A stretch of DNA of 64,000 nucleotides, taken from NCBI GenBank assembly GCA_934180065.1, contig CAKPRA010000004.1, forward strand, positions 4,786-68,785, in the 5' to 3' direction. Below, piece after piece: positions 2,008-56,017 of this stretch. Made by a program: the position numbers and the translations under genes. Each line of letters starts with the position of its first letter. The stretch's first letter is position 1. Source of the stretch: an uncultured Clostridia bacterium. GTDB lineage: Bacteria > Bacillota > Clostridia > TANB77 > CAG-508. Below the pieces are notes generated by a model. That model worked only from the letters and a program-made list of their open reading frames with translations. It ran no database searches and was not told the DNA's origin.

Positions 2008-2040
2008 TGTCAAAGGGTTGACAACCTTCCCCATTGACAA
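2008..2040. repeat. degenerate REP-like element (gtgtcaaagggttgacaaccttccccattgacaa)
   Basis: Shares the CCCCATTGACAA end and the GTCAA...TTGAC arrangement with the dispersed repeat family. Confidence 0.4.
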
Positions 2041-2214
2041 AATTGGATTGTTTTATAGTTATTTAATAATACTAGAACAGATAGATAGAAAATGAATATG
2101 ATAAAATGAGTTTTATTAGTTGACAAGTGTTTTGTACTTTTGATATATTTTATTTATATAATTTTTATAAAAATTTAAAAACAAAAGCAAAAATTAAAAA
2201 GGAGGAATTTTATA

Positions 2215-2925
2215 ATGAAAAAAGCAGGAAAGATTATATTAATATTAGTGATTGTACTACTAATAGGAGGAATCATATGTGGAGTATATTTTTTATATAA
2301 AAATAATGAAGAATCAAACAAGAAAATTGCTGAACTAGAAAATAAAATTGCTACTATTAATAATGAAGATAAAAGCAATTCTTCAAACGAAGTAATAAAT
2401 GATAAAAAAAATAATAAAACGAATAATGAAATTAATAATAAAAAAATAACAGTAAAAGAATTTTCAGATAATGATGTAGTAGCAAGTAATGGATTAAAAC
2501 TTGGTATGTTTGGAGAAGACGTTATTAAGATTATAAAAGATGAACCATCAGATCATAAAACAATAAATGAAGATGCAACAGGAGATATTGTAAATCAAAG
2601 TAAATATGACAATTTAGGACTAGAATTAGAATACCGTAGTGAAGATGGAGAAGGAACACTAAGTAGTATAACATGGACAAAAAATAGCATAAAAACAGCA
2701 AGAGGTATAACAATAGGATCAACAGAATCTGAAGTATTATCTGCATATACAAAAGATTCAATACTTGCAATTGATAATGAGCAATCAGATGGTACTAAAA
2801 TAGTTACAATTGGATATAAAGGTGACGATCCAGTTTATAATGTAAATAACAAAAGTAAAATATTTATAACTATTTCGTCAGGAAAAGTTACTAAAATAGT
2901 TATAAGTTATGGACATTTAAATTAA
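2215..2925 (+). CDS. membrane-anchored hypothetical protein (N-terminal TM helix, Asn/Lys-rich linker, C-terminal GLKLG..FEDV domain)
   Basis: An RBS (aaggagg) lies upstream. The protein has a TM helix. Its C-terminal domain is paralogous to the lipoprotein at 3615..4280. Confidence 0.6.
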   Translation: MKKAGKIILILVIVLLIGGIICGVYFLYKNNEESNKKIAELENKIATINNEDKSNSSNEVINDKKNNKTNNEINNKKITVKEFSDNDVVASNGLKLGMFGEDVIKIIKDEPSDHKTINEDATGDIVNQSKYDNLGLELEYRSEDGEGTLSSITWTKNSIKTARGITIGSTESEVLSAYTKDSILAIDNEQSDGTKIVTIGYKGDDPVYNVNNKSKIFITISSGKVTKIVISYGHLN

Positions 2926-2951
2926 TACAATTTATAAGAGTAATTAATTAT

Positions 2952-2978
2952 AAAGAGAGAAGTTTAAATTCTCTCTTT
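2952..2978 (+). terminator. rho-independent terminator (aaagagagaagtttaaattctctcttt + T-run)
   Basis: Perfect hairpin followed by ttttgtttt. Confidence 0.6.
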
Positions 2979-3331
2979 TGTTTTATGTGTCAATATAGAT
3001 AAAGCCTTTGACAAATTTTAGCATGTTTCTTTTTTGGGATTTTGAGATTATCAAAAAGCTTCATTGATATTGACATTTTTTGAAAAATAAAAAAATGTTG
3101 ACTCATAAAAGTAATTAATATAGAATCAAGTAAAAGAGGAGGAAACAAAAAAGCAATGTTGAAAGTTAATGAAAATAAAATTAAGAAAGAATATAGTATA
3201 AAAGTAATTAGGCAAAAGAATAGAGCACTAAAAAAAGTGAAAAAATATATTTTTTGCGTTTTTTAAAGCCTACTGTTACAAAAGAAGAAAGTTGGTATGT
3301 AAAATAAAAAAATAAATAAAGGAGGATATTT

Positions 3332-3504
3332 ATGAAAAAGAAAAATTTTTTAATAGTTTTATCAATGATAATGTTATCGTTGATTTTATTTGGAAGTGTA
3401 GTAGATGCTGATAAAAAACAGCCAGCTAATTTATCGATTTCTGTTAATTCAACTGCAGTAAAAAAAGGTGACGAAGTAGAACTTAGTATTAGTGGAACAA
3501 ATAT
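3332..3504 (+). pseudogene. 5' fragment of a secreted Ig-like-domain protein, truncated by a REP pair
   Basis: A signal peptide is followed by NLSISVNSTAVKKGDEVELSISG. The ORF then reads into the REP (MGTELFDSF) and stops at 3556. Confidence 0.45.
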
Positions 3505-3587
3505 GTCAATGGGGACGGAGCTTTTTGACAGCTTTGGACATTTTAAAGCTGTTTAAAAGTTGTCAAAGAGAATCGTCCCCATTGACT
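3505..3587. repeat. inverted REP pair (BIME-like hairpin)
   Basis: gtcaatggggacggagctttttgacagc ... ttgtcaaagagaatcgtccccattgac. The two halves are reverse complements. Confidence 0.85.
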
Positions 3588-3614
3588 CGCATAATATTTT
3601 TAAGGAGGAGAAAA

Positions 3615-4280
3615 ATGAAAAAAACTATTTCAATTTTAGGTATAATTTTAATATTGACAGTCAGTTTTCTTGGTTTTTCAGGCTGTGGAAGCAAAGATGA
3701 AAACAAGGAAAAAAATGAAGATCAAAATGGTACTGCAATAGCAGGTAAAAAAGAAGAATCAAAAGATCCAATAAATGATAACGATTCATATTATTTTATA
3801 TATGATGGAAAGAAATTTAAAGCAGGAGATAAAGTTTCTAGTATAGAAGAAAAAACAGAATTGGTTTTAAGAGAAAAAGAAAAAACAGAAGATGTTCCAG
3901 CTAATAAATATATGATTGGTGCAGGATATATACAAACAGCAGAAAAGAAGACTTCTTTTTATGTAACACCATATAATACAGAAAATTCAGCAGTAAAAAT
4001 TCCAGATACATACATAGGCGGTTTTGATTTAAATTCAACTAATCTAAAAAATGATAGCAAATTAGCCGATGTTGAAGTTGTTGGAGGATTAAAATTAGGA
4101 TCTTCATTTGAAGATGTAAAAAAAGTATTCGGAGAAACTGAAGATATATATGAAGGAACAAATTATGATCAATATACATATAAATCAAAAGAAGTATATA
4201 GATCTTATGTATTCAAATTCAGTAAAGATGAGAAGAAAGTTATAGAAATTACTTGGAAAAACTTAGTTTTTAATAAATAA
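3615..4280 (+). CDS. lipoprotein (lipobox LGFSGC), paralogous C-terminal domain to 2215..2925
   Basis: An RBS (aggagg) lies upstream. Signal peptide plus Cys lipobox. The GGLKLGSSFEDVKKVF motif is shared with the upstream gene. Confidence 0.7.
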   Translation: MKKTISILGIILILTVSFLGFSGCGSKDENKEKNEDQNGTAIAGKKEESKDPINDNDSYYFIYDGKKFKAGDKVSSIEEKTELVLREKEKTEDVPANKYMIGAGYIQTAEKKTSFYVTPYNTENSAVKIPDTYIGGFDLNSTNLKNDSKLADVEVVGGLKLGSSFEDVKKVFGETEDIYEGTNYDQYTYKSKEVYRSYVFKFSKDEKKVIEITWKNLVFNK

Positions 4281-4308
4281 GTCAATGGGGACGGTTCTTT
4301 TTGACAAC
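4281..4308 (+). repeat. REP-like element
   Basis: gtcaatggggacggttctttttgacaac, starting immediately after the lipoprotein stop codon. Confidence 0.85.
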
Positions 4309-4335
4309 TTTAAAACTAACTTCTTCAGGCTCTTA

Positions 4336-4450: not shown

Positions 4451-4664
4451 TATTCGCTCTTTTTTTTTACCATTTTTAAAATTGTAAGCGAAATTAATGA
4501 TATTTTATTATAAGTATGCATTTTATAATACCTCCTTAGTGTTAGGTTTTGTTGCTTAAATTCTATAAGGTAATTTAAATAAGTGCATATTTGGGGCAAA
4601 AAACATGTTGGAGTTTTATCACCTAAACACTTATTATGTAAATCGTCTTAAAAATTCCTGAAGT

Positions 4665-4738
4665 TGTCAAAGAGAACCGTCCCCATTGACAAACTTGTCA
4701 AAGAGAACCGTCCCCATTGACTGCCCATTGACCGCCAT
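4665..4738 (-). repeat. two tandem REP-like elements in reverse orientation plus a CCATTGAC mini-array
   Basis: ttgtcaaagagaaccgtccccattgac occurs twice (4665-4690 and 4695-4721). It is followed by tgcccattgaccgccattg. Confidence 0.85.
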
Positions 4739-4741
4739 TGC

Positions 4742-6010
4742 CTAAATTCTGAGCAAACTAATCCATCTTTTAAATAAATAAGAACTCATATTTGCAAAAC
4801 TGTTTTTCTTTACAGTTTTATCTGAAACTATATCAACACTACATAACTGTTTTCCATCAAGAAAATAATTAATCTCTCCAATTTTTTCTCCTTTTGAGAT
4901 AGGAGCTGCTATAGTATCAGGAATATTTACTTCTTGCACTATTTTTGATTCCTGACCTTTTGGAATTAAAATGGATTTTGTATTTGAAAATGTAGCATTT
5001 ATTCTGCTCTCAACGCCCCTTTGTACAGATACAGTTTTTAATATATCATTGCTTGTTGATAATTGGCTAGATGTATAGTTTTTAAATCCATAATCTAGTA
5101 ATGTTTTTGCCTCTGAAAATCTAAGAGCTGTTGATGGAGCCTTCATTATAACAGCAATTAAATTCAAGTTATCTCTAGTAGCACTTGCAGATAAGTTATA
5201 TAATGCAAGACTTGTAGATCCTGTCTTTAAACCGGTGCAACCTTCATAATTTCTAACTAATTTATTTGTATTAACAAGTTGAGATTTTCCATCACGAATT
5301 GAATCCATCCAAATAGTGGTATAATTTTTTATTGAAGGGTGATTATTTAATAATTCTCTAGACATTATTGCAATATCATGAGCACTTGTAACATGACCAT
5401 CTTCATCAATACCATGGCAATTTTTAAAATGAGTATCATTCATTCCAAGCTCTTTAGCTCTAGCATTCATTTTTTCGACAAAATTTTCTGTACTTCCACA
5501 TAAATATTCAGCCATAGCAACAGTACAGTCATTTGCAGAAACAACACACATACATTTTAACATTTCATTAACAGAAAGATTTTCTGTTGTCGTAAGCCAA
5601 ATCTGTGAACCTCCCATAGAGCTTGCGTTTTCACTACATGGAACTTTATCATCAAGTTTGATTTTGCCAGAATCAAGCTCTTCCATAATTAGTAATATAG
5701 ACATTATTTTCGTCACACTTGCTGGGCGTAATTGCTCATGAATATTGTGCTCATATAAAATTTGACCAGAATCTTGGTCAATTAAAATAGCTGATCCAGA
5801 CTGTAAATTTAGAGGATTCTCTTTTGATGTATTATTTTCATTATTATCTGTATTTTGTGTATCTGTTTCACCTGTTGAAGTTTCTAATGTATCTTCATAA
5901 TTAGACCAAGCATATGAGTCTAAAGCCAAAGCAGTAGTATTTATGCTTGTTATAATTGATAAAATGAACAAAACAGATAATGTTTTTATAATTAAAGATT
6001 TATAGTTCAT
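4742..6010 (-). CDS. dacB: D-alanyl-D-alanine carboxypeptidase (serine-type, PBP5/6 family)
   Basis: Signal peptide. SxxK (ASVTK), SxN (SAN) and KTG motifs are present. The C-terminal domain is typical of PBP5. Confidence 0.8.
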   Translation of the reverse strand: MNYKSLIIKTLSVLFILSIITSINTTALALDSYAWSNYEDTLETSTGETDTQNTDNNENNTSKENPLNLQSGSAILIDQDSGQILYEHNIHEQLRPASVTKIMSILLIMEELDSGKIKLDDKVPCSENASSMGGSQIWLTTTENLSVNEMLKCMCVVSANDCTVAMAEYLCGSTENFVEKMNARAKELGMNDTHFKNCHGIDEDGHVTSAHDIAIMSRELLNNHPSIKNYTTIWMDSIRDGKSQLVNTNKLVRNYEGCTGLKTGSTSLALYNLSASATRDNLNLIAVIMKAPSTALRFSEAKTLLDYGFKNYTSSQLSTSNDILKTVSVQRGVESRINATFSNTKSILIPKGQESKIVQEVNIPDTIAAPISKGEKIGEINYFLDGKQLCSVDIVSDKTVKKNSFANMSSYLFKRWISLLRI

Positions 6011-6085
6011 AAAAGCCTCCGATTTTAATTAATTTATTAAAGTATATTAAAAATAAATAAAAAAATGAGTATTTACTGTTACTTT

Positions 6086-6953: not shown

Positions 6954-9900
6954 ATGGCAGACGTTAAGTGGACAAATGAACAAAAAGATGCAATATTTGA
7001 CAAAGGTTCAAACATATTAGTAGCAGCAGCTGCTGGAAGTGGTAAAACTGCGGTATTAGTAGAGCGTATTATTAACAAGGTTATAAATGAAAATGTTGAT
7101 ATAGATAAAATTCTAGTAGTTACTTTTACAAATGCTGCAGCAAGTGAAATGAGAGAGCGTATACTAGAAGCTATTTATAAAAAAATGGAAGAGCTTCCTG
7201 ATAATAAAAACTTACAAAAACAAGTTATTTTAATTAATAAAGCAAGCATTTGTACAATAGATTCATTTTGCTTAGATGTTATAAGAAACAACTTTTTTGA
7301 AATAGATGTATCTGCAAATTTCAGAGTAGCAGATACAACCGAAATAGAGCTATTAAAACAAGAAGTGATTGATGATATTTTTGAGGAAAAATATATATCA
7401 AATGATAAAAAATTCTTAAAATTAATAAACACATATACAACATACAGAGATGATGAACCCCTAAAAGAGCTGTTATTGAATATTTTTCGATATATCCAAA
7501 GCAACCCATTTCCAAATCAATGGCTTCATGAAAAAATTGAAATGTTTAATTTAAATAAATCTGATGATTTTTCAAATACTTTATGGGGAAAGATTTTATT
7601 AGAAAATTTAAACCAAGAGCTTTCAGATTATGTTATAAATTTAAAGAAAATAGAGCGTGATTTAGCAAGATTTGAAGAGCTAGAAAAATACAGATTAGTA
7701 ATTAGTGAAGATATAATAAATTTAGAATATGTGCAAGAAAATCTTGGCTCATGGGACAATGCCTATGAAAAAGCTTCAAATATAAAATGGACAAATTGGC
7801 CAAAAGATTCAAAAATTACATTAGAGCTAAAAGAAACAGCAAAAAGCTTAAGAGATTCTATAAAAAATAAATACAAAAAAACTATTTCTAAAGTTTTATT
7901 ATATAATTCTAAAGAGGCTAATGAAAACATTTATAATATGTATGAAATATTAAAAGATGTAGAAACATTGGTATTAGAGTTCTCAGAGCAGTTTGCTTTA
8001 AGAAAAAAAGAAAAAAATATGGTAGATTTTAATGATATAGAGCATTTTGCGTTAAATATTTTAGTAAAAAGAAATGATGATGGAACAATTGAAGAAACCG
8101 ATATTGCTAAAAAATATAAGGAAAAATTTACCGAAATAGCAATAGATGAATATCAAGACAGTAACTATGTGCAGGAATATATATTAACAAGTGTATCTAA
8201 AGGAAATAATGTTTTCATGGTAGGGGACGTAAAACAAAGTATTTATAAATTTAGACAAGCATGTCCAGATTTGTTTTTAGAGAAATATAATAAATATAAT
8301 CTGAAAAATGAAAATATAGTTAATGGTCAAAAAATTCAATTGTTTAAGAATTTCAGAAGTAGGTCAAATATTTTAGATGTTACAAATATAATATTTGAAA
8401 ATATTATGAGCGAAAAACTTGGAGATATAAAATATGATAAAACCGAATTTTTAAATTTAGGTGCAGATTATAAAGAACCATCAGATTCTGAAATAAAAAA
8501 TTTTGCAGGGAAAACTGAGCTTCATGTAATTGATTTAAAAGAGCCGGAAATTAATGTTTTTAAAGACATTCAAGAAGATGAAGAGGAAGAAGATAATTCT
8601 AATCAAGAAAGAATAGAAGATGTTGTATTAGAAGCAAGGTTTGTTGCTAGAGAAATCAAAAAATTAATTGATAGTGACTATATGGTTTTTGATAAAAAAA
8701 CAAAAGAATATAGACACATTACATACAAAGATATAGCCCTTTTGTTAAGAGCAACATCAGTAACAGCTCCTATATATGAAAATGAAATAGCTAAATTGAA
8801 TATGCCAGTTTTTAGTGATGTATCTTCTGAATATCTTGAATCAATGGAAATTCAGACCATAATGGCAACATTAAAAATCATAGATAATCCAATGCAAGAC
8901 ATTCCACTTGTAACAGTTTTAAGGTCTGTAATTGGAGGGTTTACAGATAATGAATTAGTAAAGATTCGTTTAAAAAATAAAAAGCAATCATTTTATAAAT
9001 CACTAGAAGAATATGATGGTGATGATAATTTAAAATCAAAGATTGATGTTTTTTTACTTAGTATAAAAAAGTGGCAAGAGCAAGAAAAATACATGGCTCT
9101 TGATGAGCTTATTTGGCAAATATATATAGATACACAATTTTATAATTATGTAACATTAATGCCAAATGGAGCATTAAGACAAGCTAATTTGAAAATGCTT
9201 TTTGAAAGAGCAAAACAGTATGAAAGCGCTAGTTTTAAAGGGTTATTTAATTTTATAAGTTTTATAGATAAACTTCATACAAGCAGTGGTGACCTATCCT
9301 CTGCAAAATTAATTGGAGAAAATGAAAATGTAATTAGAATAATGAGTATTCATAAAAGTAAAGGTCTAGAATTTCCAGTTGTCTACTTATGTGGAACAGG
9401 AAAACAGTTTAATATGCAAGATTTAAATAAAAATATTTTATTACATCAAGATTTGGGAATAGGACCTAAATATATAAATAACGAGAGAAACATTGAGTAT
9501 AATACTTTGGCAAAAGAAGCCATAAAAATACAAACAAAATTAGAATCTTTATCTGAAGAAATGAGAGTATTATATGTGGCTCTAACAAGAGCAAAAGAAA
9601 AGCTTATAATAACAGGAATTTGTAAGGATGCAGATAAATCATTTAAGGAAAAGCAAGACTTAATTAGCACTTATAAAGCTGTATCAAATAACAATGAAAT
9701 AAGTGCATCAATTATAAAACAATATAAAACATATTTGGATTGGATTACATTAGTTTATTTTAATAATATAAATATTATAAAAGATTATATAGATTTAGAA
9801 ATACATAAAAAAACTGATTTAATAAAAGAATTTGAAAAAAGTAAAGAGCAAGTTCTAGAGCGTGATATTTTCAAAGAGCTTAAACAAAAATCTAAAAATG

Positions 9901-10703
9901 TAAAAAGTGAAGATATTGAACAATTGAAAGATAAAATATTGTGGTCATATAAATATGCAGACTCTGTTGAGATTCCAACTAAGACATCTGTTACAAAAAT
10001 AAAGGAGCTTTCAAATGAAGAAAATATTGTAAGTATAGAAGAGCTAGAGGAACAGAAAGAATTCAAAAAGGAAATGGCAAAACCTAAATTTTTAAATGAA
10101 GAAGAGAAACTTTCAGCAGCACAAAAAGGTACATTAATGCATTTATGTTTTCAAAGGCTTGATCATACTAGAGATTATACAAAAGCACAGATACAGGACT
10201 TTGTGCAAGATTTGGTAAATAGAAATATAATAACAAAATTAGAAGCAGATAGCATTAATATAAATAAGCTTTTTGATTATACTAATTCAAGCTTATGGAA
10301 AGAGCTTAAATTGGCTAAGAAAGTTTATAAAGAGCAACCATTTTATATTAATTTAAAATCAAAAGATATTTATAATAATAATTCAAATGAAAATATTCTA
10401 GTTCAAGGAATTATAGATTTATATTATATAAATAAAAATGATGAAATAATTTTAGTTGATTATAAAACTGATTGGATTGAAGAAGGAGAAGAGCTTAAGC
10501 TGGTTGAGAAATATGCCAAACAGCTAGAAATATATAAAAATGCATTAGAGCAAGCATTAGGTAAAAAAGTAAACAAAAAATATATTTATTCTGTGTCAAT
10601 GGGGACGGTTCTCCTTGACACGTCTTGTCAAAAAGTGTCAATAGGGACGGTTCTCCCTGACACGTCTTGTCAAAAAGAACCGTCCCCATTGACCGCCAAT
10701 TGA
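6954..10703 (+). CDS. addA: ATP-dependent helicase/nuclease subunit A (AddA/RexA-like: UvrD helicase plus C-terminal PD-(D/E)XK nuclease). The C-terminal 35 aa are encoded by REP repeats
   Basis: The Walker A motif is GSGKTAVLVERI and the UvrD motifs are present. The nuclease motif is IDLYY...VDYKTD. The tail VSMGTVLLDTSCQK... is a translated REP. Confidence 0.8.
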   Translation: MADVKWTNEQKDAIFDKGSNILVAAAAGSGKTAVLVERIINKVINENVDIDKILVVTFTNAAASEMRERILEAIYKKMEELPDNKNLQKQVILINKASICTIDSFCLDVIRNNFFEIDVSANFRVADTTEIELLKQEVIDDIFEEKYISNDKKFLKLINTYTTYRDDEPLKELLLNIFRYIQSNPFPNQWLHEKIEMFNLNKSDDFSNTLWGKILLENLNQELSDYVINLKKIERDLARFEELEKYRLVISEDIINLEYVQENLGSWDNAYEKASNIKWTNWPKDSKITLELKETAKSLRDSIKNKYKKTISKVLLYNSKEANENIYNMYEILKDVETLVLEFSEQFALRKKEKNMVDFNDIEHFALNILVKRNDDGTIEETDIAKKYKEKFTEIAIDEYQDSNYVQEYILTSVSKGNNVFMVGDVKQSIYKFRQACPDLFLEKYNKYNLKNENIVNGQKIQLFKNFRSRSNILDVTNIIFENIMSEKLGDIKYDKTEFLNLGADYKEPSDSEIKNFAGKTELHVIDLKEPEINVFKDIQEDEEEEDNSNQERIEDVVLEARFVAREIKKLIDSDYMVFDKKTKEYRHITYKDIALLLRATSVTAPIYENEIAKLNMPVFSDVSSEYLESMEIQTIMATLKIIDNPMQDIPLVTVLRSVIGGFTDNELVKIRLKNKKQSFYKSLEEYDGDDNLKSKIDVFLLSIKKWQEQEKYMALDELIWQIYIDTQFYNYVTLMPNGALRQANLKMLFERAKQYESASFKGLFNFISFIDKLHTSSGDLSSAKLIGENENVIRIMSIHKSKGLEFPVVYLCGTGKQFNMQDLNKNILLHQDLGIGPKYINNERNIEYNTLAKEAIKIQTKLESLSEEMRVLYVALTRAKEKLIITGICKDADKSFKEKQDLISTYKAVSNNNEISASIIKQYKTYLDWITLVYFNNINIIKDYIDLEIHKKTDLIKEFEKSKEQVLERDIFKELKQKSKNVKSEDIEQLKDKILWSYKYADSVEIPTKTSVTKIKELSNEENIVSIEELEEQKEFKKEMAKPKFLNEEEKLSAAQKGTLMHLCFQRLDHTRDYTKAQIQDFVQDLVNRNIITKLEADSININKLFDYTNSSLWKELKLAKKVYKEQPFYINLKSKDIYNNNSNENILVQGIIDLYYINKNDEIILVDYKTDWIEEGEELKLVEKYAKQLEIYKNALEQALGKKVNKKYIYSVSMGTVLLDTSCQKVSIGTVLPDTSCQKEPSPLTAN

Positions 10704-10730
10704 CCACCAATTGACCGGCCAGATTGACAC
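10595..10730. repeat. REP cluster: two direct copies, one inverted copy, then a CCAATTGAC array
   Basis: gtcaatggggacggttctccttgaca, then gtcaatagggacggttctccctgaca, then ttgtcaaaaagaaccgtccccattgac. These are followed by cgccaattgaccaccaattgaccggccagattgacac with a period of about 10-11 bp. Confidence 0.85.
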
Positions 10731-10746
10731 ATGAAAGGAGTTTTTT

Positions 10747-10983: not shown

Positions 10984-11039
10984 AATATGTTGACAAAGAA
11001 AAAATTTAATGCTAACATATAAAACAATTAAAATAACTA

Positions 11040-11250
11040 TGTTAAAAAGAAAATTAGTAGAAATCTATAATTCAAAATAAAGAGAGATAATGGTTGGTGT
11101 TAATTATCAGAATATAGATTCCGAATTACAATTCTTATAGTAGTTACGTTAAAGATTACGAAAATCTAAAATAAGGCAAAGTAAAATTTGTAAAAAAAGG
11201 TGGTACCACGAGCTAATTCGTCCTTTAGGATTAATTAGCTCTTTTTGTGT
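11040..11250 (+). promoter_or_regulatory. T-box riboswitch leader of tyrS
   Basis: The conserved T-box sequence aaaggtggtaccacgag (about 11195-11212) is followed by a terminator hairpin gctaattcgtcctttaggattaattagc and a T-run. Confidence 0.7.
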
Positions 11251-14642: not shown

Positions 14643-14765
14643 CATATTATTATAAATCAATTATGTTATTATAAGTTAATTGTATTATTATAAATTAATT
14701 ATATTATTATAAATTTAATAGTTATATTATTGTGAAAAATAATAATTATATTATTGTAAAAATGA
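14643..14765. repeat. AT-rich degenerate tandem repeat (ttattataaat.aatt, about 20 bp period, about 6 units)
   Basis: Visible directly in the sequence upstream of the UbiB-like gene. Confidence 0.5.
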
Positions 14766-16879: not shown

Positions 16880-16897
16880 GAAAAGAAAAAGGAAAAA

Positions 16898-17073
16898 GGA
16901 AAAGGGGACGGTTCTCTTTTCCCAGATTTGGGAAATAGGGACACAGTCCAAAGCAAATGAGATACGCTTTTTTTCTGTAAAGGGAGAAATAGGGACAGTC
17001 TAGATTAAATGAAATACGCTTTTTTTGGCAAAATGGAGAAAGAAAATGGAAAAGAGAGCCGTCCCCTTTTCCC
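16898..17073. repeat. 176-bp MITE-like element whose terminal inverted repeats carry the REP core
   Basis: The left end is ggaaaaggggacggttctcttttccc and the right end is ggaaaagagagccgtccccttttccc, which is its reverse complement. An internal direct repeat reads aaatga(g/a)atacgcttttttt. Confidence 0.8.
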
Positions 17074-17097
17074 TTTTTGGAGGTTTTGTTATTCAAT

Positions 17098-40526: not shown

Positions 40527-40527
40527 A

Positions 40528-42696: not shown

Positions 42697-43056
42697 AAAA
42701 AATTGAGCTTCCATAAAATCAAAATTATGGTAGCTCTTTTTATATGTTAAATAAAGTAATAAGATTATAACACATAAAGAGAATAAATAATGTTCAGGAT
42801 AGTTTGATTGAATTTAGTGAAAACATATATTAAATGTTTAACTTTAACATGAGATGTATTTAAATCCGCTATATTCTACTTTTCCATTTTTAACTTGTAA
42901 AACTTATGTTTAAAATAAAAACAATGGTCAAAGCCATGCCGGTTGCTGAGATAAAAAGGTTGAAATAAATTCTGTTTTATAAATCATATCATTGATTTTG
43001 TAATCTTTTTAAGATATAATATCCGAATAAAATATAAGATACAGAAAGGGAATGAG

Positions 43057-45539: not shown

Positions 45540-45649
45540 TTGATAACGGTTTAATATTGTCAATTATCATAAATAAAATAAATTACTTAAATTTTTATCT
45601 CGTTCCCATTGACATATATCGAAAAAGTGATAGAATATTACCATAAAAT

Positions 45650-47444: not shown

Positions 47445-48308
47445 ATGAAGAGAAAATTTATACTAATAATAAGTGTAATAATAATTCTAATTATATCTGT
47501 ATGTGTTTTATTATTAAATAAAAGCAAAGAAGTTGCAAAAAATAGTGATGAAATATATATAAACGTTGAAAATGAGTTTATGGCTGAAAATACTAATAAT
47601 GTTACAAATAATATAATATCAGAAAAAAATGAAGAAAAAACGATTAGTACTGCAAGTAATGAGCAAAAAGTAGATAAAAATGTTAATCAAAATAACGTTG
47701 ATGTAAATAAAAAAGTAGAAAAAACAGAAAATAAAAATCAAACAAGCTCAAACAGCAATATTAGTAAAGAAAATAATGCACCAACTGGTAAAACTACATA
47801 TTATATCAAGGTAAATTATGGAGCTAATGCAGTTACTATATACAAAAAAGATGAAAACGGTTATTACACAGTTCCAGTAAAGGCAATGATTTGTTCATGT
47901 GGAACTGCAACACCGAAAAGTGGTGTTTATAAAACATCTAAGGGATATGAATGGGGAACTTTAGAAGGAGGAACATATGGTAGGTATTCTACTAGAATAA
48001 AGGGTGGCATTTTATTTCACTCTGTTCCATATGTGTCAGAAAGTGAGGATTCATTAGAATATTGGGAATATGATAAATTAGGAACGACAGCATCTTTAGG
48101 TTGTGTTAGACTTGCAGTGGCTGATTCAAAATGGATATTTGATAATTGTGAAGTTGGAACTCAAGTCGAGTTTTATTCAGATACAAATCCAGGACCACTA
48201 GGAAAACCAACTGCCCAAAAAATATCTGATAATGAGAAATGTAGAAATTGGGATCCAACAGATACTTCTCCAAATAGCCCATGGGTCAATGGGGACGGTT
48301 CTCTTTGA
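47445..48308 (+). CDS. L,D-transpeptidase (YkuD domain). The last 8 codons are encoded by a REP
   Basis: HSVPY....SLGCVRL catalytic motif. The tail WVNGDGSL comes from gggtcaatggggacggttctctttga. Confidence 0.75.
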   Translation: MKRKFILIISVIIILIISVCVLLLNKSKEVAKNSDEIYINVENEFMAENTNNVTNNIISEKNEEKTISTASNEQKVDKNVNQNNVDVNKKVEKTENKNQTSSNSNISKENNAPTGKTTYYIKVNYGANAVTIYKKDENGYYTVPVKAMICSCGTATPKSGVYKTSKGYEWGTLEGGTYGRYSTRIKGGILFHSVPYVSESEDSLEYWEYDKLGTTASLGCVRLAVADSKWIFDNCEVGTQVEFYSDTNPGPLGKPTAQKISDNEKCRNWDPTDTSPNSPWVNGDGSL

Positions 48309-48311
48309 CAA
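48285..48311 (+). repeat. REP-like element
   Basis: gtcaatggggacggttctctttgacaa. Confidence 0.85.
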
Positions 48312-48574
48312 CCACAAAAAAATACAGAATTTTTCTGTATTTTTTTTGCATGAAACGGAACATAAACAGTTGACACACTGAAAGTTATTTTGGAATTATG
48401 GAAAGTAAGTAAAAGGAAAAAAATAAGGAAGAAACGGGAAAGTGTTGAAGCAATTGACAATATTGAATTGGGAAAAATTACATAATTGTACTTGACATAA
48501 TTATTGATAATATGCTATACTTTATTCAGATGTTTCGAAAGAAACATACTTTGTACTAAGGAGGTCGAAAGACC

Positions 48575-48769: not shown

Positions 48770-48785
48770 AATTCCCCAAAGAAAA

Positions 48786-48822: not shown

Positions 48823-48853
48823 CGTTAACTTAAATGGTAAACCAGGATTATGG

Positions 48854-48880
48854 GTCAATGGGGACGGTTCTCTTTGACAA
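48854..48880 (+). repeat. REP-like element
   Basis: gtcaatggggacggttctctttgacaa. Identical to the copy at 48285. Confidence 0.85.
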
Positions 48881-49199
48881 CAATAAAAAAACTACAGAAT
48901 TTTCCTGTATTTTTTTGTTGCATGGAACAAAACATAAACAGTTGACGCACTGAAGATTATTTCCTTATTATGGAAAGTAAATAAAAAGAAAAGATGAAGG
49001 AAGAAACAGATACGGTTCTTGCAAGTGTTTGCAAGGAACCTTAAATCACTTAATAAATAAAAGAGTTGAAGCAATTGACTTTGAGCGATTAGAAGGAAAG
49101 TGCATAAAATTACTTGACATATACACAGTAAATGGTGATAGAATTATGATATATCAAACTGAAATGGTGCAATAAAATTTTATGAGGAGAATATAAATC

Positions 49200-50279
49200 A
49201 TGGAAAGTTTAAAGGAATATAGACCTAGTATAATTAATAAACTAAAATTATTTCTAAGCAGAATTGAACAAAGAAAAACAATTGAAAAAAATTTAGATAA
49301 ATTAGATATCAGTTTATTTTCTTCCAATAATATTGATTATATAATACAAAATAAAGAAAAATTTAAAAGTACAAGTGGTATGCCAGATCCACAAAAAGAA
49401 ATTATGACTATTGAAGATAAACTTGGAATAGTAATGGACTTTTTCAATGATTTAAATTCTAGTTTAGGGAAAAAAGTTAAAGATACATATTTAAAATATA
49501 AAACGCAAATTTATTTTGATGAGTGCAGTGATAAAAATAAAGAAATTGGTGATGGTTTCACTAGCGGACATAATAGAAGTACATCCATTATGTGTGGCGA
49601 TGGTATTGAAAGACCAAATCTTATAGCAAGAATTTGTACCAATAAAAATAATGCACTAGATATATATAATATAGCTCACGAATTCACACATATATTGCTA
49701 AACGAAAATACTAAAGAAAAAAACATTAGTGCTGAAAACCAAGAAATTGCAACTAGATTTACAGAAATCTTGTTGGGCGAATATATGGAAAAAAGAAAAA
49801 TTATCACAACAGAAGACAAAGAAAATCACAACATATGTATATCAGGCGAAATAGATAAAGCATATCAGCTCAATGAATATAGAATTTTAAGAAACCTAAT
49901 TAAAAACAATGGAAATAAATTTGATAAGAAATTAGAAAAAACATGTATTTCTAAATATTGCAAAGGAAATAAAAACTGGTATTACCAAATATTATCAAAC
50001 ATAGCATATAGATTAGAAAGAACCGGCAAAGTAGACGGTTTTCAAAATTACTTAAGATTTGTTAATTCAGCAGCAGAATGTGATAAATTAAAACAAGCAT
50101 ATATTGAAAATCCCGATTTAATAAAAAAAGCTTTTTCTCAATGTTTAATGAGTCAGCATAGTATTACGTACAATGATGTAGTGAAAAAGAGGTCAATGGG
50201 GACGGTTCTTTTTGACACAAAAAACATTGACGTTTTACAGCAAGTAAAGAAAAAAGATACATACGAAATTACTCATTAA
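49200..50279 (+). CDS. hypothetical protein with an HExxH motif (putative zinc metallopeptidase). An in-frame REP insertion lies near the C-terminus
   Basis: HEFTH motif. A REP at 50192-50219 is translated as RSMGTVLFDT. Confidence 0.45.
   Translation: MESLKEYRPSIINKLKLFLSRIEQRKTIEKNLDKLDISLFSSNNIDYIIQNKEKFKSTSGMPDPQKEIMTIEDKLGIVMDFFNDLNSSLGKKVKDTYLKYKTQIYFDECSDKNKEIGDGFTSGHNRSTSIMCGDGIERPNLIARICTNKNNALDIYNIAHEFTHILLNENTKEKNISAENQEIATRFTEILLGEYMEKRKIITTEDKENHNICISGEIDKAYQLNEYRILRNLIKNNGNKFDKKLEKTCISKYCKGNKNWYYQILSNIAYRLERTGKVDGFQNYLRFVNSAAECDKLKQAYIENPDLIKKAFSQCLMSQHSITYNDVVKKRSMGTVLFDTKNIDVLQQVKKKDTYEITH
50192..50219 (+). repeat. REP-like element inside a coding sequence
   Basis: gtcaatggggacggttctttttgacaca. 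Confidence 0.85.
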
Positions 50280-50962: not shown

Positions 50963-50994
50963 GCAAAAAGAACCTCCCATCACTGGGGGTTTTT

Positions 50995-51033
50995 GTCAAT
51001 AGGTGTCAATAGGGGACGGTTCTTTTTGACACA
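50995..51033 (+). repeat. REP-like element (partial copy plus full copy)
   Basis: gtcaataggtgtcaataggggacggttctttttgacaca. Confidence 0.8.
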
Positions 51034-51061
51034 AAAACATTGCCATTTTTACATCAAAAAT

Positions 51062-51322
51062 AAAGAAAAAGCTAAATACATACGTAAAAATTCAACCTAA
51101 AAGCTATTGTATATCCTTCTGATTGTTTCTCTTCCTATATTTAATTCTTTTGAAATTCATGGATGAAGCACCAATTTTTTTATACCTCGCTTTCAGTTTT
51201 TTTACATAGCGCTCTGAAAAATTCAACCTGTTTGCTGCAACTTTGATAGTCATAGTTCCAGTAATACAACTTTGTATTACTGCTTTTTTTAATTCTTCTT
51301 TTTTATTCATAACAGTTCTCAT
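51062..51322 (-). pseudogene. remnant of a REP-associated tyrosine transposase copy (3' end duplicated from 52131-52230 but frameshifted), with an HTH N-terminal part
   Basis: DNA 51066-51160 is about 95% identical to 52136-52230, which is the 3' end of the RAYT gene plus downstream sequence. The reading frame differs. An HTH-like segment VAANRLNFSERYVKKLKARY is present. Confidence 0.5.
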
Positions 51323-52003: not shown

Positions 52004-52077
52004 TTAAAACCTACTGTCATCTACAGAAAAAGGTTGCAAAAAAAGTCCCTCTCATTTGGGGACTTTTTTGTTGCTCT

Positions 52078-52105
52078 GTCAATGGGGACGGTTCTTTTTG
52101 ACACA
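52078..52105 (+). repeat. REP-like element flanking the 3' side of the RAYT gene
   Basis: gtcaatggggacggttctttttgacaca. Confidence 0.85.
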
Positions 52106-52168
52106 AAAACATTGCCATTCTTACATCAAGAATAAATAAAAAGCTAAATACATACGTAAAAATTCAAC

Positions 52169-52873
52169 CTAAGAGCTATTGTATAGCCTTCTAATTGTTT
52201 CTCTTCCTATATTTAATTCTTTTGAAATATTTCTTAAAGAAATATGTTTTTTATCTTTCAATAATCTTATAAGATCCGATAAAATAATTTTATTATTTTT
52301 TAATTCTGAAGTATCTATATGATATTCCTCTAAAAATTTTCTAATAAAATCTTTGCACTCAGTATTATTATTTTTATCATCATCCACATCGATAAAGACA
52401 TATTCATCATCCAAATCTTTATTATTTAAATCCTTATTGAATTTTTTATAATTTGAATAAGGATAATCTTCGGCTTTTTGGCAAATACCAGCTTTTACAG
52501 GATTATTAAAGATATAATTTATGCAATTATATAAGTGTTTCTTACTGTAGATTCCTTCAGCCTTATATCTATCTCGAAAAACATAGCCTACTCTATTGTA
52601 TTTTTTATTATAGTACATACTATATCGTATGTTAAGACGTTGCATGTATTTGCTAAGATCTTTTAAACTATTGGATTCAATTAAAATATGTGTATGATTA
52701 TTCATAATACAATAAGCAATTATATTAATTTTATGTTCAGTAAGTAAATCATACATTATTTTTATATAATACTTAATATCTTGTGTTTCATCAAAAATAT
52801 AGCTTTTATTAATTCCTTGGGTAATAATATGAAAAAAAGATGTTTGAATAAAACTTCTTGGTTGTCTTGGCAT
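52169..52873 (-). mobile_element. REP-associated tyrosine transposase (RAYT, IS200/IS605 TnpA-like Y1 HUH enzyme) with a C-terminal HTH
   Basis: HuH motif HTHILIE. Catalytic Tyr region YIFNNPVKAG. The C-terminal part LRNISKELNIGRETIRRL is an HTH. The gene is bracketed by inverted REP copies at 52078-52105 and 52985-53013. Confidence 0.75.
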
Positions 52874-52984
52874 AAAATCTCCTAAATATTGTGAAATAAA
52901 ATTATATATATAATATCATAAGAATAATAAAAAAAATGTCGAAATGTGCTTTACTACATAATTTTTTGGAATTAATAGACAAAG

Positions 52985-53013
52985 TTGTCAAAAAGTTCCG
53001 TCCCCATTGACAT
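52985..53013 (-). repeat. REP-like element (reverse orientation) flanking the 5' side of the RAYT gene. It carries the TTGACA used as the ppdK -35
   Basis: ttgtcaaaaagttccgtccccattgacat. Confidence 0.85.
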
Positions 53014-53040
53014 ATTTTTTTGATTTTATGTTATAATAAT
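53006..53040 (+). promoter_or_regulatory. sigma-A-type promoter of ppdK (TTGACA-N18-TTATAAT), with the -35 contributed by the REP end
   Basis: ttgacatatttttttgattttatgttataat, followed by an RBS (aaggagg) and the ATG at 53083. Confidence 0.55.
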
Positions 53041-53082
53041 TACAAATTTACAAAAGAATATATTTAAGGAGGAAATAAACTT

Positions 53083-55707
53083 ATGAATAAAAAATATGTA
53101 TATCTTTTTAAAGAAGGTAATGCAAGTATGAAAGAGCTACTTGGCGGAAAAGGTGCCAATTTAGCTGAAATGACATCTTTAGGGATGCCAATACCTCAAG
53201 GTTTTACAATTACAACAGAGGCTTGTAACAAATATTATGATGATGATGAACAAATTTCTAAAGAAATTTTAGAGCAAATAGATTCTGCTCTTATATATTT
53301 GGAGGATCATACAGGTAAAAAGCTTGGAAGTAAAGAAAAACCTTTATTAGTATCTGTAAGATCAGGGGCTAGAGCTTCTATGCCGGGTATGATGGATACT
53401 GTTTTAAATTTAGGTATGAATGATGAAGTTGTTCAGACTTTTGCCGAGAAAAATAGAAGATTTGCTTTTGATAGTTATAGAAGATTTATACAAATGTATA
53501 GTGATGTTGTTAAGGAAATACCTAAAAAATTATTTGAAGATGCTATTGATACTAAAAAACAACAAAGAAATTTGAAATTAGATACTGATATGGATGCTAA
53601 TGACTTGGAAGATTTGGTAAAAGTATTTAAAGGGATTTATAGAGATTATCTACATGAAGAATTTCCACAAGATACTAAATTACAATTAATTGAATCTATT
53701 AAGGCTGTATTTAGATCTTGGAATAATCCAAGAGCAATCACATATAGAAAATTGAATGATATACCATCTGATTGGGGAACTGCTGTTAATATACAAGCGA
53801 TGGTATTTGGTAATATGGGAGAAGATTGTGGTACAGGTGTTGCTTTTTCTAGAAATCCAATTAATGGTAAAAAAGAGGTTTTTGGAGAATTTTTAATGAA
53901 TGCACAAGGTGAAGACGTTGTTGCTGGTATACGTACTCCTCAGTCTATTGATACTTTAAAATATATTAATAAACAAGCATATGATGAATTTGTTAAATTT
54001 GCTGATAGATTGGAAAAACATTATAAAGATATGCAAGATATGGAATTTACTATTGAGCATGGTAAATTATATATGTTACAAACAAGAAATGCTAAACGTA
54101 CAGCAGTTGCAGCTTTAAAAGTTGCTGTAGACTTAGTTTTAGAGGGAATGATTGATGAAAAAGAAGCTGTGCTAAGAGTTGAGCCAAACCAATTAGAGCA
54201 ATTGCTACACCCTAACTTTAATCAAGAAGCTCTTAAAAAGGCTAAACCTATAGCTAAAGGATTACCTGCATCTCCAGGTGCTGCTACAGGTAAAGTTGTT
54301 TTTACTGCAGATAAAGCTAAAGAGCTTAAAGAAGCGGGAGAAAAAGAGCTTGTATTGGTTAGACTTGAAACATCACCAGAAGATATTGAAGGTATGGTTG
54401 TTTGTAGTGGTGTTCTTACAGTTAGAGGTGGAATGACTTCTCATGCAGCAGTTGTTGCTCGTGGTATGGGAACTTGTTGTGTTGCTGGCTGTGGAGAGCT
54501 TATTGTTAATGAGGATGAAAAGGTATTTTATACTAAAGATGGTAAAGCATTCCACGAAGGTGATTATATTTCTTTAGATGGATCTAATGGTAATGTTTAT
54601 GGAGAAAGAATTGATACTGTAGATGCATCTATTTCAGGTGATTTTGCAACTCTAATGGGTTGGGCTGATAGTATAAGAAAATTGAAAGTTAGAGCTAATG
54701 CTGATAATGTTAGAGATGCTCAAAAAGCCTATAATTTTGGAGCTGAAGGTATAGGATTATGCAGAACAGAACACATGTTCTTTGAGCCAGATAGAATTGC
54801 AGCTATTAGAGAAATGATAGTATCTAAAACACATGAACAAAGAGCTTGTGCACTTTCAAAAATACTTCCTATGCAAAGAGCTGACTTTGAAGGTTTATAT
54901 AGATCTATGAGAGGATATCCAGTTGTAATAAGATTATTGGATCCACCTCTTCATGAGTTTTTACCACATGATGATGAGGAAATTAAAGCTTTATCACAAG
55001 ATATGGGATTAAGTTTTGATGAACTTAAAGATATTGTAACTGACTTACATGAGTTTAATCCTATGATGGGTCATAGAGGTTGTAGACTTGATGTAACATT
55101 CCCTGAAATCGCTGAAATGCAAACAAGAGCTATTATAGAAGCAGCTATTAATGTATATAAAGAAGGAGTAAAAATTGTTCCAGAAATAATGATTCCTTTA
55201 ATAGGTGATGAAAAAGAGCTTAAATTTGTTAAAAATATTATAGTAAAAACCGCTGACGAAATCATTGAGAAATCTAATATTGATTTGAAGTATCAAGTAG
55301 GAACAATGATTGAAATACCTAGAGCTTGTTTAATAGCAGATGAAATTGCAAAAGAAGCGGAATTCTTCTCTTTTGGTACAAATGATTTAACACAGTTAAC
55401 TTATGGATTTAGCCGTGATGATGCTGGAAAATTCTTAAAAACTTATTATGAGAAAAAGATTTTTGAAAGTGATCCATTCCAAAAAGTTGATCAAATTGGG
55501 GTTGGTAAACTTATGAAAATGGCAATAGAAGATGCTAAAAAAGTTAGACCTAATATAGAGCTTGGAATATGTGGAGAGCATGGAGGAAATCCACCAACTG
55601 TAGAATTTTGTCATAATATAGGATTAACATATGTATCATGTTCACCTTTCCGTGTGCCAATAGCACGTTTGGCAGCAGCACAAGCAGCAGTTAAATTTGA
55701 AAAATAA
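53083..55707 (+). CDS. ppdK: pyruvate, phosphate dikinase
   Basis: 874 aa. The phosphohistidine region GGMTSHAAVVARG and the PEP-utilising domains are present. Confidence 0.95.
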   Translation: MNKKYVYLFKEGNASMKELLGGKGANLAEMTSLGMPIPQGFTITTEACNKYYDDDEQISKEILEQIDSALIYLEDHTGKKLGSKEKPLLVSVRSGARASMPGMMDTVLNLGMNDEVVQTFAEKNRRFAFDSYRRFIQMYSDVVKEIPKKLFEDAIDTKKQQRNLKLDTDMDANDLEDLVKVFKGIYRDYLHEEFPQDTKLQLIESIKAVFRSWNNPRAITYRKLNDIPSDWGTAVNIQAMVFGNMGEDCGTGVAFSRNPINGKKEVFGEFLMNAQGEDVVAGIRTPQSIDTLKYINKQAYDEFVKFADRLEKHYKDMQDMEFTIEHGKLYMLQTRNAKRTAVAALKVAVDLVLEGMIDEKEAVLRVEPNQLEQLLHPNFNQEALKKAKPIAKGLPASPGAATGKVVFTADKAKELKEAGEKELVLVRLETSPEDIEGMVVCSGVLTVRGGMTSHAAVVARGMGTCCVAGCGELIVNEDEKVFYTKDGKAFHEGDYISLDGSNGNVYGERIDTVDASISGDFATLMGWADSIRKLKVRANADNVRDAQKAYNFGAEGIGLCRTEHMFFEPDRIAAIREMIVSKTHEQRACALSKILPMQRADFEGLYRSMRGYPVVIRLLDPPLHEFLPHDDEEIKALSQDMGLSFDELKDIVTDLHEFNPMMGHRGCRLDVTFPEIAEMQTRAIIEAAINVYKEGVKIVPEIMIPLIGDEKELKFVKNIIVKTADEIIEKSNIDLKYQVGTMIEIPRACLIADEIAKEAEFFSFGTNDLTQLTYGFSRDDAGKFLKTYYEKKIFESDPFQKVDQIGVGKLMKMAIEDAKKVRPNIELGICGEHGGNPPTVEFCHNIGLTYVSCSPFRVPIARLAAAQAAVKFEK

Positions 55708-55710
55708 GGG

Positions 55711-55920
55711 GAGAAAGAAGAGCAAAGAAGAAAAAAGAAAAGAAAGGAAAAGACGGAAAAAGGAAGAGAAAGAGGAGGGAAAGAGGAGGGAAAAGGGGAC
55801 GGTTCTCATTGACAACCTTAAAAAAAGGTTGTCAATGAGAACCGTCCCCTTTTCCCTCCTCTTTCCTCCTCTTTCTCCTTCTTCCGCTTTTCTCTTCCGC
55901 TCTTTCTTTCTTCTTTCTGG
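55711..55920. repeat. roughly 210-bp imperfect palindrome: polypurine arm, REP core, ttaaaaaaa, REP core (reverse complement), polypyrimidine arm
   Basis: ggaaaaggggacggttctcattgacaacc ttaaaaaaa ggttgtcaatgagaaccgtccccttttcc. The flanks are aag/agg repeats on the left and their reverse complement on the right. Confidence 0.9.
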
Positions 55921-56017
55921 CACCCTCCAATTTTCCCAAAAAGTTTCATCACCATTGACATATTTTTTTGAATTAAATATAGAATTAAATATAGAAAGGT
56001 TTGGTGATGATTTTATA

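Follow-up and report, generated by a model that had tools for sequence, protein, structure and literature searches.

To our knowledge, repetitive extragenic palindromic (REP) sequences and REP-associated tyrosine transposases (RAYTs) have been studied almost only in Proteobacteria. The described systems closest to the one presented here are the TIRtrons, RAYT-like genes located between inverted repeats that share the sequence GGGGWSAS, of which some are self-complementary and occur in moderate numbers (Di Nocera et al. 2013, PMC3733652). The corresponding enzymes, the TIRYTs, form TnpAREP subclass 2.1, which has a C-terminal helix-turn-helix (HTH), a median length of 238 aa and 'no REP-like structures' beside the genes (Quentin et al. 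2018, PMC6006769). Subclass 2.1 is equivalent to RAYT Group 1, reported in Clostridia with low counts of flanking 16-mers; for this group the earlier surveys gave no REP-like hairpins, or low-copy flanking repeats only (PMC6006769, PMC5581495). In this work we analysed a 64-kb stretch of DNA of about 27% G+C (contig CAKPRA010000004.1; the whole stretch is called the window below) from an uncultured Clostridia bacterium, a human-gut organism present in many samples. The window contains a family of short hairpin repeats and, between two inverted copies of the repeat, a gene for a RAYT/TIRYT-type Y1 HUH transposase. In our interpretation, to which we assign a probability of about 0.75, the repeats are non-autonomous REP-like DNA hairpin elements partnered with this single transposase, encoded at 52169-52873(-).

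The locus resembles a TIRtron in several respects. Its enzyme, of 234 aa, is a class 2 Y1 HUH protein with a Y...NP motif and an HTH at the C-terminus. Inverted repeats stand on both sides of the gene, about 100 nt before it and a short distance after it, and these flanking repeats carry a GGGG box, GGGGACGG here for the published GGGGWSAS. As in some TIRtron hosts, the flanking repeats also occur as moderately abundant dispersed singles, dimers and clusters. There are differences, too: in every flanking copy examined the box fits seven of the eight published positions, the exception being position 7, which is G where A was published; the repeat forms a true hairpin, in which the stem covaries and the loop holds the box; and the family is dense (one copy per 3.4 kb in the window) and extends across many Clostridia families. 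The REP-like hairpins beside the gene also distinguish the locus from subclass 2.1 as characterized by Quentin et al., a subclass to which the enzyme is assigned by motifs only (NHTH, FR/FQ, YIFNNP). NHTH and YIFNNP are clearly class 2 motifs, but the subclass cannot be fixed from motifs because YIFNNP also resembles the YIxNNP of subclass 2.4 (PMC6006769, Table 1).

Literature searches with six sub-strings of the repeat, on both strands and as DNA and RNA, returned unrelated primer matches only, and searches for RAYT or REP in combination with Clostridia or Lachnospiraceae returned general surveys only (PMC3733652, PMC5581495, PMC6006769). The family is best filed as a clostridial member, not described earlier, of the RAYT/TIRYT-associated repeats, with its enzyme gene in the window.

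Results

A dispersed repeat family in the window

The 13-mer GGGGACGGTTCTC has 8 exact matches in the window and 17 at up to 2 mismatches, whereas dinucleotide-preserving shuffles gave 0.00 and 0.04; because of the low G+C content of the window, a chance origin of this G-rich sequence is very unlikely. Using an nhmmer profile made from the window copies, 19 units were accepted at E <= 3e-5 and two fragments (45601-45616 and 55952-55962) were found besides, and an independent repeat search grouped the same sites (Table 1). The copies occur in both orientations with irregular spacing (31 nt to 31 kb), and 16 of the 19 are intergenic or located at stop codons. Eight are members of close inverted pairs or of a composite, five are solo, the others are tandem direct copies or flank the transposase gene. 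Folded as DNA, the inverted pairs form long hairpins with energies of -24.5 kcal/mol (3502-3587, z -7.3), -30.5 kcal/mol (10635-10694) and -67.2 kcal/mol (55787-55857, z -16), the last one being the centre of a near-perfect palindrome of ~120 nt (about 55762-55885).

A first-pass annotation of this DNA had claimed a dispersed palindromic family similar to REPs and bacterial interspersed mosaic elements (BIMEs). The number of copies, the RAYT gene between inverted copies and the same layout in other genomes all bear this out. Each of the coordinates that it listed matches a copy or fragment found with the profile, and the arrangements that it described (single, tandem direct, inverted-pair hairpin, composite similar to a miniature inverted-repeat transposable element (MITE), and within an open reading frame (ORF)) were all recovered. 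The copies are neither a product of chance, as the count of 17 matches against 0.04 in the window shows, nor confined to the window, since the family occurs in many Clostridia. Three copies had been called degenerate. The one at 2008 is real and diverged, and that at 55945 is a decayed copy, but the one at 45601 is only a 16-nt fragment of the left arm (E 1.3).

Anatomy of the unit

The consensus unit of the window is an imperfect palindrome of ~30 nt, (T)GTCAAT-GGGGACGGTTCTYT-TTGACA(A/C). Its arms, TGTCAA and TTGACA, are complementary, so that each unit can pair into a stem of 7-9 bp closing a loop of 15-17 nt, and the loop holds the constant box GGGGACGG, in the window GGGGACGGTTCT. A second subfamily in the window (16897, 17045) has GGAAAAG/CTTTTCC arms around the same core, and the arms of the pair at 55.8 kb are hybrids of the two types.

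The stem is supported by covariation. In 148 distinct copies from other genomes, evaluated over nine stem pairs, 74.8% of the stem cells are paired, compared with 59.6% when the 3' partners are shuffled and 34-46% when they are slid by 1-3 columns. The covariation score is 0.391 vs. 0.162, a value reached by none of 500 shuffles, and single pairs switch cleanly, e.g. A-U in 57 copies and U-A in 54 at one position. The box was followed in 824 kb of sister-species DNA selected by tyrosyl-tRNA synthetase (TyrRS) alone, where GGGGACGG or one of three one-base variants was counted 53 times (8.5 in shuffles). Perfect stems of at least 6 bp enclose 51% of these boxes, as against 2.8% of random sites, and the stems differ widely, e.g. 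GGGATTT/AAATCCC and GAACTTTA/TAAAGTTC. The box is thus kept while the stems vary across genomes, which makes the 8-nt box the constant element and the next 4-5 nt and the stem subfamily-specific.

Of 285 copies, 41 (14%) are preceded 9-13 nt upstream by a partial copy of the left arm; these 41 come from many genomes and differ in their arms. The partial arms end within the G-run (GTCAATGG, ...GGG, ...GGGGAC); examples in the window are at 4723-4742 and 10695-10736. Their sequences would be compatible with repeated breakage and joining in the 5' part of the loop, slippage being the alternative. An inner mini-stem, GGGGA/TTCTC, was considered as a further conserved structure and dropped, as it is not kept in the GGGGACGGAGA(A/T)TT variants.

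Sister species also carry other subfamilies (L139 at 5536-5568, and several sites in L155, L157 and L210), which have the same box and different stems and right halves, e.g. GGGGACGGTCCT and GGGACGGAGCT; some form inverted pairs. These sequences suggest that several repeat lineages, possibly with several RAYTs, co-exist in the clade.

The transposase

The transposase ORF was absent from the first-pass annotation; it emerged when the ORFs of 118 listed loci, selected by the repeat motif, were clustered. The protein, which begins with MPRQPR...FFHIITQGINK, matches Pfam Y1_Tnp with 45.6 bits (cutoff 23) and, over the full profile, the NCBIfam model of REP-associated tyrosine transposases with 78.4 bits (cutoff 80), while its score with the NCBIfam model transpos_IS200 is 17.9 bits (cutoff 55). 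The HUH motif reads N59-H60-T-H62 and the tyrosine motif Y120-IFN-N124-P125; there is also an F-(R/Q)-D-R-Y block, with FR in the window enzyme and FQ in the homologues of ~30% identity. The catalytic residues and this block are invariant among the aligned homologues down to 30% identity. The solved structure that best matches the fold of the model is 4ER8_A, the E. coli TnpAREP with its REP hairpin (E 3e-6, TMt 0.60), followed by the IS608 and ISDra2 transposases. Residues 171-233 form a tail with five predicted helices (predicted local distance difference test, pLDDT, about 80-88), for which the profile matches are below threshold in the window protein (HTH_11 20.4 bits, also HTH_23 and HTH_28) and above it in the homologue P0117 (HTH_11 25.7 bits). 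The conserved C-terminal HTH contains invariant arginines. One intact gene and one 18-codon remnant are present in the 64 kb, and one gene in a 74.9-kb strain contig. The enzyme is probably a domesticated transposase, which likely spreads the repeat.

Gene and flanking units, here and in other genomes

The two units next to the gene face inward, one 63 nt past its stop codon and the other 109 nt before its start. The same arrangement was found around homologues that had been selected by protein similarity, ignoring the motif. The RAYTs of L119 and L120 (80% identity) are located between GTCAATGGGGACGGTTCTTTTTGAC units at equivalent distances, and those of L121/L122 (61%) and L123/L124 (60%) between GTCAATGGGGACGGAGA(A/T)TTTTGAC units, which recur elsewhere on the same contigs. 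The 118 motif-selected loci, of 8 kb each, contained five RAYT homologues of about 30% identity, where ~0.3 would be expected for a single-copy gene. The core lies 21-330 nt from these five genes, and on both sides wherever the locus spans both gene ends. Homologues at this level of identity, flanked by inward-facing GGGGACGGTTCT units, were found in Lachnospiraceae, Oscillospiraceae, Clostridiaceae, Gudongella and a metagenome-assembled genome of Eubacteriales, and the bracketing layout is seen in the motif-selected loci L030, L072, L074 and L086.

Distribution and turnover

A scan with an 18-mer of one genome per species (596 Gb) detected at least 118 motif loci in other genomes. The listed loci are mostly from rumen and gut Clostridia: Butyrivibrio, other Lachnospiraceae, Oscillospiraceae, Eubacterium, Clostridium sp. 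CAG:492, Syntrophomonas and Gudongella. Unrelated phyla gave a few single matches, which chance could account for with an 18-mer and this amount of sequence. The commonest form in the other listed genomes is an inverted doublet with 25-50 nt between the copies.

The density in the window had been called unusual. This is correct in comparison with sister species: the 21 kb around tyrS contain 11 copies in the window, 0-1 canonical copies in sister species with 84-87% TyrRS identity, and none at 73-75%. It is not unique, however, since the relative L119 has 7 copies in 15.6 kb. Clostridium sp. CAG:492 is about 80% identical to the window in the nucleotide sequence of asd and the genes that follow it. 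At the site upstream of asd that is occupied in the window by an intact pair and a decayed copy, it has an intact inverted pair; an intact CAG:492 copy is at the place equivalent to that of the decayed one. After the AbiEii gene there are two copies in CAG:492 and none in the window. A ~125-nt composite, which shares a long terminal repeat with the window element 16897-17074, separates the tyrS start from the T-box terminator in L139, L140 and L142, and is absent from L169, L136 and L143. The AddA and deaminase sites were not directly comparable in the sisters selected by TyrRS because synteny is partial.

The profile search found no copies between 17.1 and 45.6 kb of the window. The region from about 18000 to 45500 is lower in G+C (22-26% in parts) and contains genes for glycosyltransferases and Wzy and a restriction-modification system of the Alw26I type. 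A fused Eco57I-type and C5 methylase (36039-39071) and an Alw26I-type endonuclease (39117-40544(-)) are encoded there. The lack of repeats in this low-GC block suggests that its DNA was probably acquired later, after the expansion of the repeat.

Effects on genes and possible transcription signals

Translated in three frames, the unit reads VNGDGSL*, SMGTVL(L/F)DT and QWGRFSLT. The addA ORF (6954-10703) reads through two and a half units of the 10593-10736 cluster. AddA ends with ...YIYSVYLGKxIxxK in nine relatives, whereas the window protein has a repeat-encoded tail of 36 residues (...YIYSVSMGTVLLDTSCQKVSIGTVLPDTSCQKEPSPLTAN); the relatives' end is missing from it, so the insertion removed the native last ten or so codons. 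The tail shows tandem copy-number variation. The YkuD-domain ORF (47445-48308) takes its last 8 codons (VNGDGSL) and its stop from the unit at 48282, and a 359-aa ORF (49200-50279) runs through the unit at 50190. Of the proposed shaping of protein C-termini by the family, the case of AddA stands, as its native end is replaced in comparison with the nine relatives, but for the other two ORFs it is only plausible.

ORF 55697-57040 is an artefact of the palindrome before asd. The arms of this palindrome (55720-55790, 55855-55925) reach about 50-60 nt past the units with purine-rich (GAAAGAGGAGGG)n and its complement, and the extended arms give rise to spurious ORFs, 55697-57040(+) and 55642-55923(-). 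In L126 the 8-nt loop of the 55787-55857 palindrome is inverted (TAAAAAAA vs. TTTTTTTA), and in another strain contig (L126/L129 comparison) the loop is altered and 28 nt of the right flank are deleted. Such loop changes are of the kind expected from recombination within a cruciform.

Owing to the arms TGTCAA/TTGACA, each unit shows an outward -35-like TTGACA on both sides. TTGACA at 45609 is separated by a 16-nt spacer from TAGAAT upstream of glyS, and the TTGACA at 53003 and at 55950, the latter upstream of asd, have plausible -10 sequences with 19-nt spacers. The hexamer at 53003 lies upstream of the gene for pyruvate phosphate dikinase (PPDK); at 69 nt from this gene, the outer end of the 52982 copy provides ATTGACA. 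Promoter and terminator scans of the window gave promoter-like sites and overall counts no higher than in shuffles. From their sequence, it is a possibility that the outward hexamers act as new promoters and that the family shapes transcription units, as the first-pass annotation had claimed.

Table 1. Repeat units, fragments and the transposase gene in the window (positions in nt from its first letter)
Position	Strand	Feature	Basis or remark
2007-2040	-	diverged copy, GGGGAAGGTTGTC with 4-nt insertion	profile E 2.8e-5
3502-3534, 3557-3587	+, -	inverted pair, 28 nt upstream of a lipoprotein-like ORF starting at 3615	profile, fold
4278-4310	+	copy beginning right after the stop of ORF 3615-4280	profile
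4662-4742	-	tandem copies 4662-4692 and 4692-4722, partial left arms 4723-4742	profile; downstream of PBP5-type carboxypeptidase gene 4742-6010(-)
10593-10736		cluster: direct copies 10593-10624(+) and 10635-10666(+), inverted copy 10665-10694(-), three partial left arms 10695-10736	
16897-17074		MITE-like composite, 178 nt, ends 16897-16927(+) and 17045-17074(-)	inverted GGAAAAGGGGACGGTTCTCTTTTCCC-subfamily ends around two 52-nt direct repeats (16930-17033); between convergent genes
45601-45616	-	left-arm fragment, 16 nt (TATGTCAATGGGAACG), upstream of the glycyl-tRNA synthetase (GlyRS) gene	
48282-48312	+	solo copy giving the end of the YkuD-domain ORF	terminator hairpin follows
48851-48883	+	solo copy in a diverged duplicate of the 48282 copy, its terminator and the downstream segment	duplicate segments 48308-48435 vs. 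48880-49007: 76% identity
50190-50219	+	solo copy within the 3' end of ORF 49200-50279	next ~60 nt resemble the RAYT-side end
51004-51156	+	truncated second REPtron end: copy 51004-51034, spacer, last 18 RAYT codons	96% identity to 52084-52228; tblastn 94% over RAYT residues 216-233
52076-52106	+	copy on the 3' side of the RAYT gene, inner-facing end of REPtron/TIRtron 52076-53014	
52169-52873	-	RAYT/TIRYT-type Y1 HUH transposase gene, 234 aa	Pfam, NCBIfam, motifs, fold
52982-53014	-	copy on the 5' side of the RAYT gene, variant GGGGACGGAACTT	
55787-55857		inverted pair (REPIN-like doublet) 55787-55818(+), 55826-55857(-)	between PPDK and asd genes
55928-55962	-	decayed copy just upstream of asd	aligns over 58 nt with 52980-53037, identity 78%

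Other features of the window

The gene for tyrosyl-tRNA synthetase is preceded by a T-box leader (11033-11228(+)), which scored 61.8 bits (E 5.8e-13), below the Rfam gathering score of 93. An orphan CRISPR-DR3-like repeat at 42836-42865(-) scored 44.7 bits (gathering 41, E 0.022); it has no array or nearby cas genes, and its neighbours are thymidylate-kinase-like and phosphodiesterase genes. A 47-nt motif, AAACATAAnnAGTTGACGCC..GATTATTTT..ATGTAAA, stands upstream of different genes at 48358-48404, 48930-48976, 61443-61489 and 62148-62194. It is also found in L069 near 6850 and is conserved in Clostridium sp. CAG:492; the two copies scanned had no Rfam match, and by its sequence and placement the motif could be a shared promoter or operator. 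Two tandem units of 156 nt, 93% identical, are located in an intergenic region (62291-62602), and in the gap between another two genes (14645-14715) there are three AT-rich repeats that overlap with a period of 19 nt. An AbiEi/AbiEii toxin-antitoxin (abortive-infection) pair at 59687-61247, downstream of dap genes and rubrerythrin, is also present in CAG:492.

Discussion

It is useful to compare the family with other described repeats. Like the REPs and BIMEs of E. coli, the units are imperfect palindromes of 30-40 nt, mostly extragenic and near gene 3' ends, and occur as singles, inverted pairs and clusters. As with E. coli TnpAREP (RAYT Group 2, subclass 2.2; 4ER8), a single-copy Y1 transposase gene lies between inverted copies, the copy number here being that in 64 kb. 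Unlike E. coli REPs, the window units have no GTAG tag at the foot and carry their conserved sequence in a loop of 15-17 nt; the enzyme differs from E. coli TnpAREP by its extra HTH tail and by its low-GC Gram-positive host. Proteobacterial REPs are largely species-specific, whereas the core found here is common to several families. The REPINs of Pseudomonas, reportedly described by Bertels and Rainey in 2011, resemble the inverted doublets that form long hairpins (3502-3587, 10635-10694, 55787-55857). In contrast to REPINs, only 8 of the 19 window copies are paired or in a composite, the spacing is variable and the RAYT belongs to a different group. Rickettsia palindromic elements (RPEs) are similar in that units at gene ends are translated (AddA, the YkuD-domain protein, the 359-aa ORF), but RPEs are in-frame internal insertions with a CGTC tag and no dedicated transposase, while the window copies replace or extend C-termini.

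The mechanism that we propose is modelled on TnpAREP and on the TnpA enzymes of IS608 and ISDra2, whose biochemistry of cutting and rejoining is established. The RAYT would bind the folded hairpin on single-stranded DNA, probably at replication forks, and would then cut and rejoin at the conserved box or close to it. In this way the units would spread into intergenic DNA and gene ends, be it singly, as inverted doublets, in tandem arrays or as short MITE-like composites, with replaced or extended C-termini of ORFs and long palindromes between genes as consequences. In this scheme mobilisation of the units by the RAYT is inferred from the relatives of the enzyme.

It must be noted that several observations weigh against a partnership of repeat and transposase. 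We know of no biochemical or genetic demonstration that this RAYT subclass cuts or moves such units. The match of the enzyme to the NCBIfam model NF047646, 'REP-associated tyrosine transposase', covers profile positions 4-146 of 146 and is just under the cutoff (78.4 vs. 80 bits), and the structure model is of moderate confidence (pLDDT 68). No copy has a GTAG or CGTC end tag, the 5' foot being (T)GTCAAT or another arm, and the conserved box is in the loop, not at the hairpin foot as in the solved TnpAREP-REP complex. Ten strain contigs with identical PPDK or TyrRS proteins are identical at the compared repeat sites with few exceptions (the flipped or altered loop of the 55.8-kb palindrome, the 28-nt deletion beside it, and an addA tail with one 42-nt unit fewer), and recent transposition in the species of the window was not documented among the compared strains. 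The comparison of filled and empty sites that had been proposed earlier was successful only in part: the tyrS composite provides one such pair, in sister lineages, with junctions that are inexact because the flanks have diverged, but the ten strain contigs contain no empty site.

The strongest alternative is that the gene and its two flanking repeats are a still autonomous transposon related to the IS200 family of insertion sequences (IS), the short repeats being its MITE debris; we consider this unlikely. The family shares with IS200/IS605 and its miniature derivatives the enzyme superfamily, DNA hairpins as recognition elements and the lack of an obvious target duplication. At a distance of 1 kb there is a truncated second end that retains 18 RAYT codons, and the RAYT gene has different neighbours from one species to another: PPDK in the window, in L119 GlyRS and a sigma factor, in L121 TraX and a radical-SAM gene, in L123 DUF2508 and an HTH gene. 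Group 1 RAYTs also have the highest duplication rate among RAYTs and are carried on plasmids (Bertels et al. 2017, PMC5581495). Against this, the 64 kb and the 74.9-kb strain contig have a single intact copy each, the homologues are 60-80% identical and not near-identical, the gene is not multicopy in the DNA searched, and there is no adjacent tnpB. The motifs are those of class 2 (NH.H, Y...NP), not those of IS200 (DH[VI]H, Y...Q; PMC6006769, Table 1), and while IS200/IS605 elements have distinct left and right subterminal hairpins, the two ends here are inverted copies of one hairpin. In L119 as in the window, GlyRS is less than 5 kb from the RAYT, suggestive of partial synteny, and only one of 2.9 million viral contigs carries the 18-mer.

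It would also be conceivable that the units are mainly transcribed RNA hairpins (3' untranslated region stabilisers, terminator helpers or targets of RNA-binding proteins) and are kept for that role. Of the 16 window copies situated just downstream of a gene, 13 have the sense orientation, copies often adjoin intrinsic terminators, and, as RNA, the GGGG strand gives a more stable fold than its complement, through G-U pairs (-10.5 vs. -5.2 kcal/mol). In the 118 listed loci, however, orientation is unbiased (41 solo copies sense, 35 antisense; p 0.57), and copies are also found before genes, in either orientation, and within ORFs. Rfam 15 gave no match at the gathering score, and at E <= 1 only generic matches of the long 55.8-kb palindrome to microRNA-precursor-like hairpins. 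Taken with the strong link to a DNA transposase, these data make an RNA role as the main explanation quite improbable.

Slightly less probable still is that the units are sites for a DNA-binding protein, possibly for the HTH tail of the RAYT, with a host role such as chromosome organisation or regulation and a copy number kept by selection. This would agree with a box that stays the same beside RAYTs of as little as about 30% identity, with the invariant arginines of the HTH, and with the copy at the orthologous place upstream of asd in CAG:492, at ~80% nucleotide identity. It does not agree with the several-fold difference in copy number between sister species, with the decay of copies (55928-55962, 45601) or with tandem and partial copies and ORF disruptions that resemble by-products of transposition, and a regulon-like placement was not seen. 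Four other candidates were rejected: a dockerin-like coding motif (GTC AAT GGG GAC GGT, V-N-G-D-G), since the copies are in three frames, on both strands, mostly extragenic and in inverted pairs; a CRISPR array, since they are dispersed, irregularly spaced and in both orientations; a known RNA family, given the lack of any Rfam 15 match at the gathering score; and a phage element, given the single viral contig.

Returning to the non-autonomous hairpins and their transposase, it is possible, although we regard it as rather doubtful, that enzymes of this RAYT branch recognise the constant loop box GGGGACGG and perhaps nick within it, with the stem free to vary. Such a geometry would be that of rolling-circle Rep proteins at their origins, and not that of TnpAREP at the foot of the stem. 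The idea is compatible with a box that stayed fixed while the RAYTs diverged to about 30% across several Clostridia families, with stems that covary freely between subfamilies, and with the partial left arms, broken inside the G-run, at 14% of the copies.

The window thus represents a human-gut clostridial case in which the enzyme gene, its two flanking units and dense derived units are found together, and in other genomes the same 8-12-nt box travels with very divergent enzymes. In practical terms, the repeat breaks metagenome assemblies, makes spurious ORF extensions (AddA, the YkuD-domain protein, the false ORF 55697-57040) and puts TTGACA hexamers and strong palindromes beside housekeeping genes; for these reasons annotators and those who study gene expression in these organisms should know about it. 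If recognition does take place at the loop box, this would mean an ancient, vertically persisting partnership of enzyme and repeat across the class Clostridia, and would offer a tractable Gram-positive model for REP biology.

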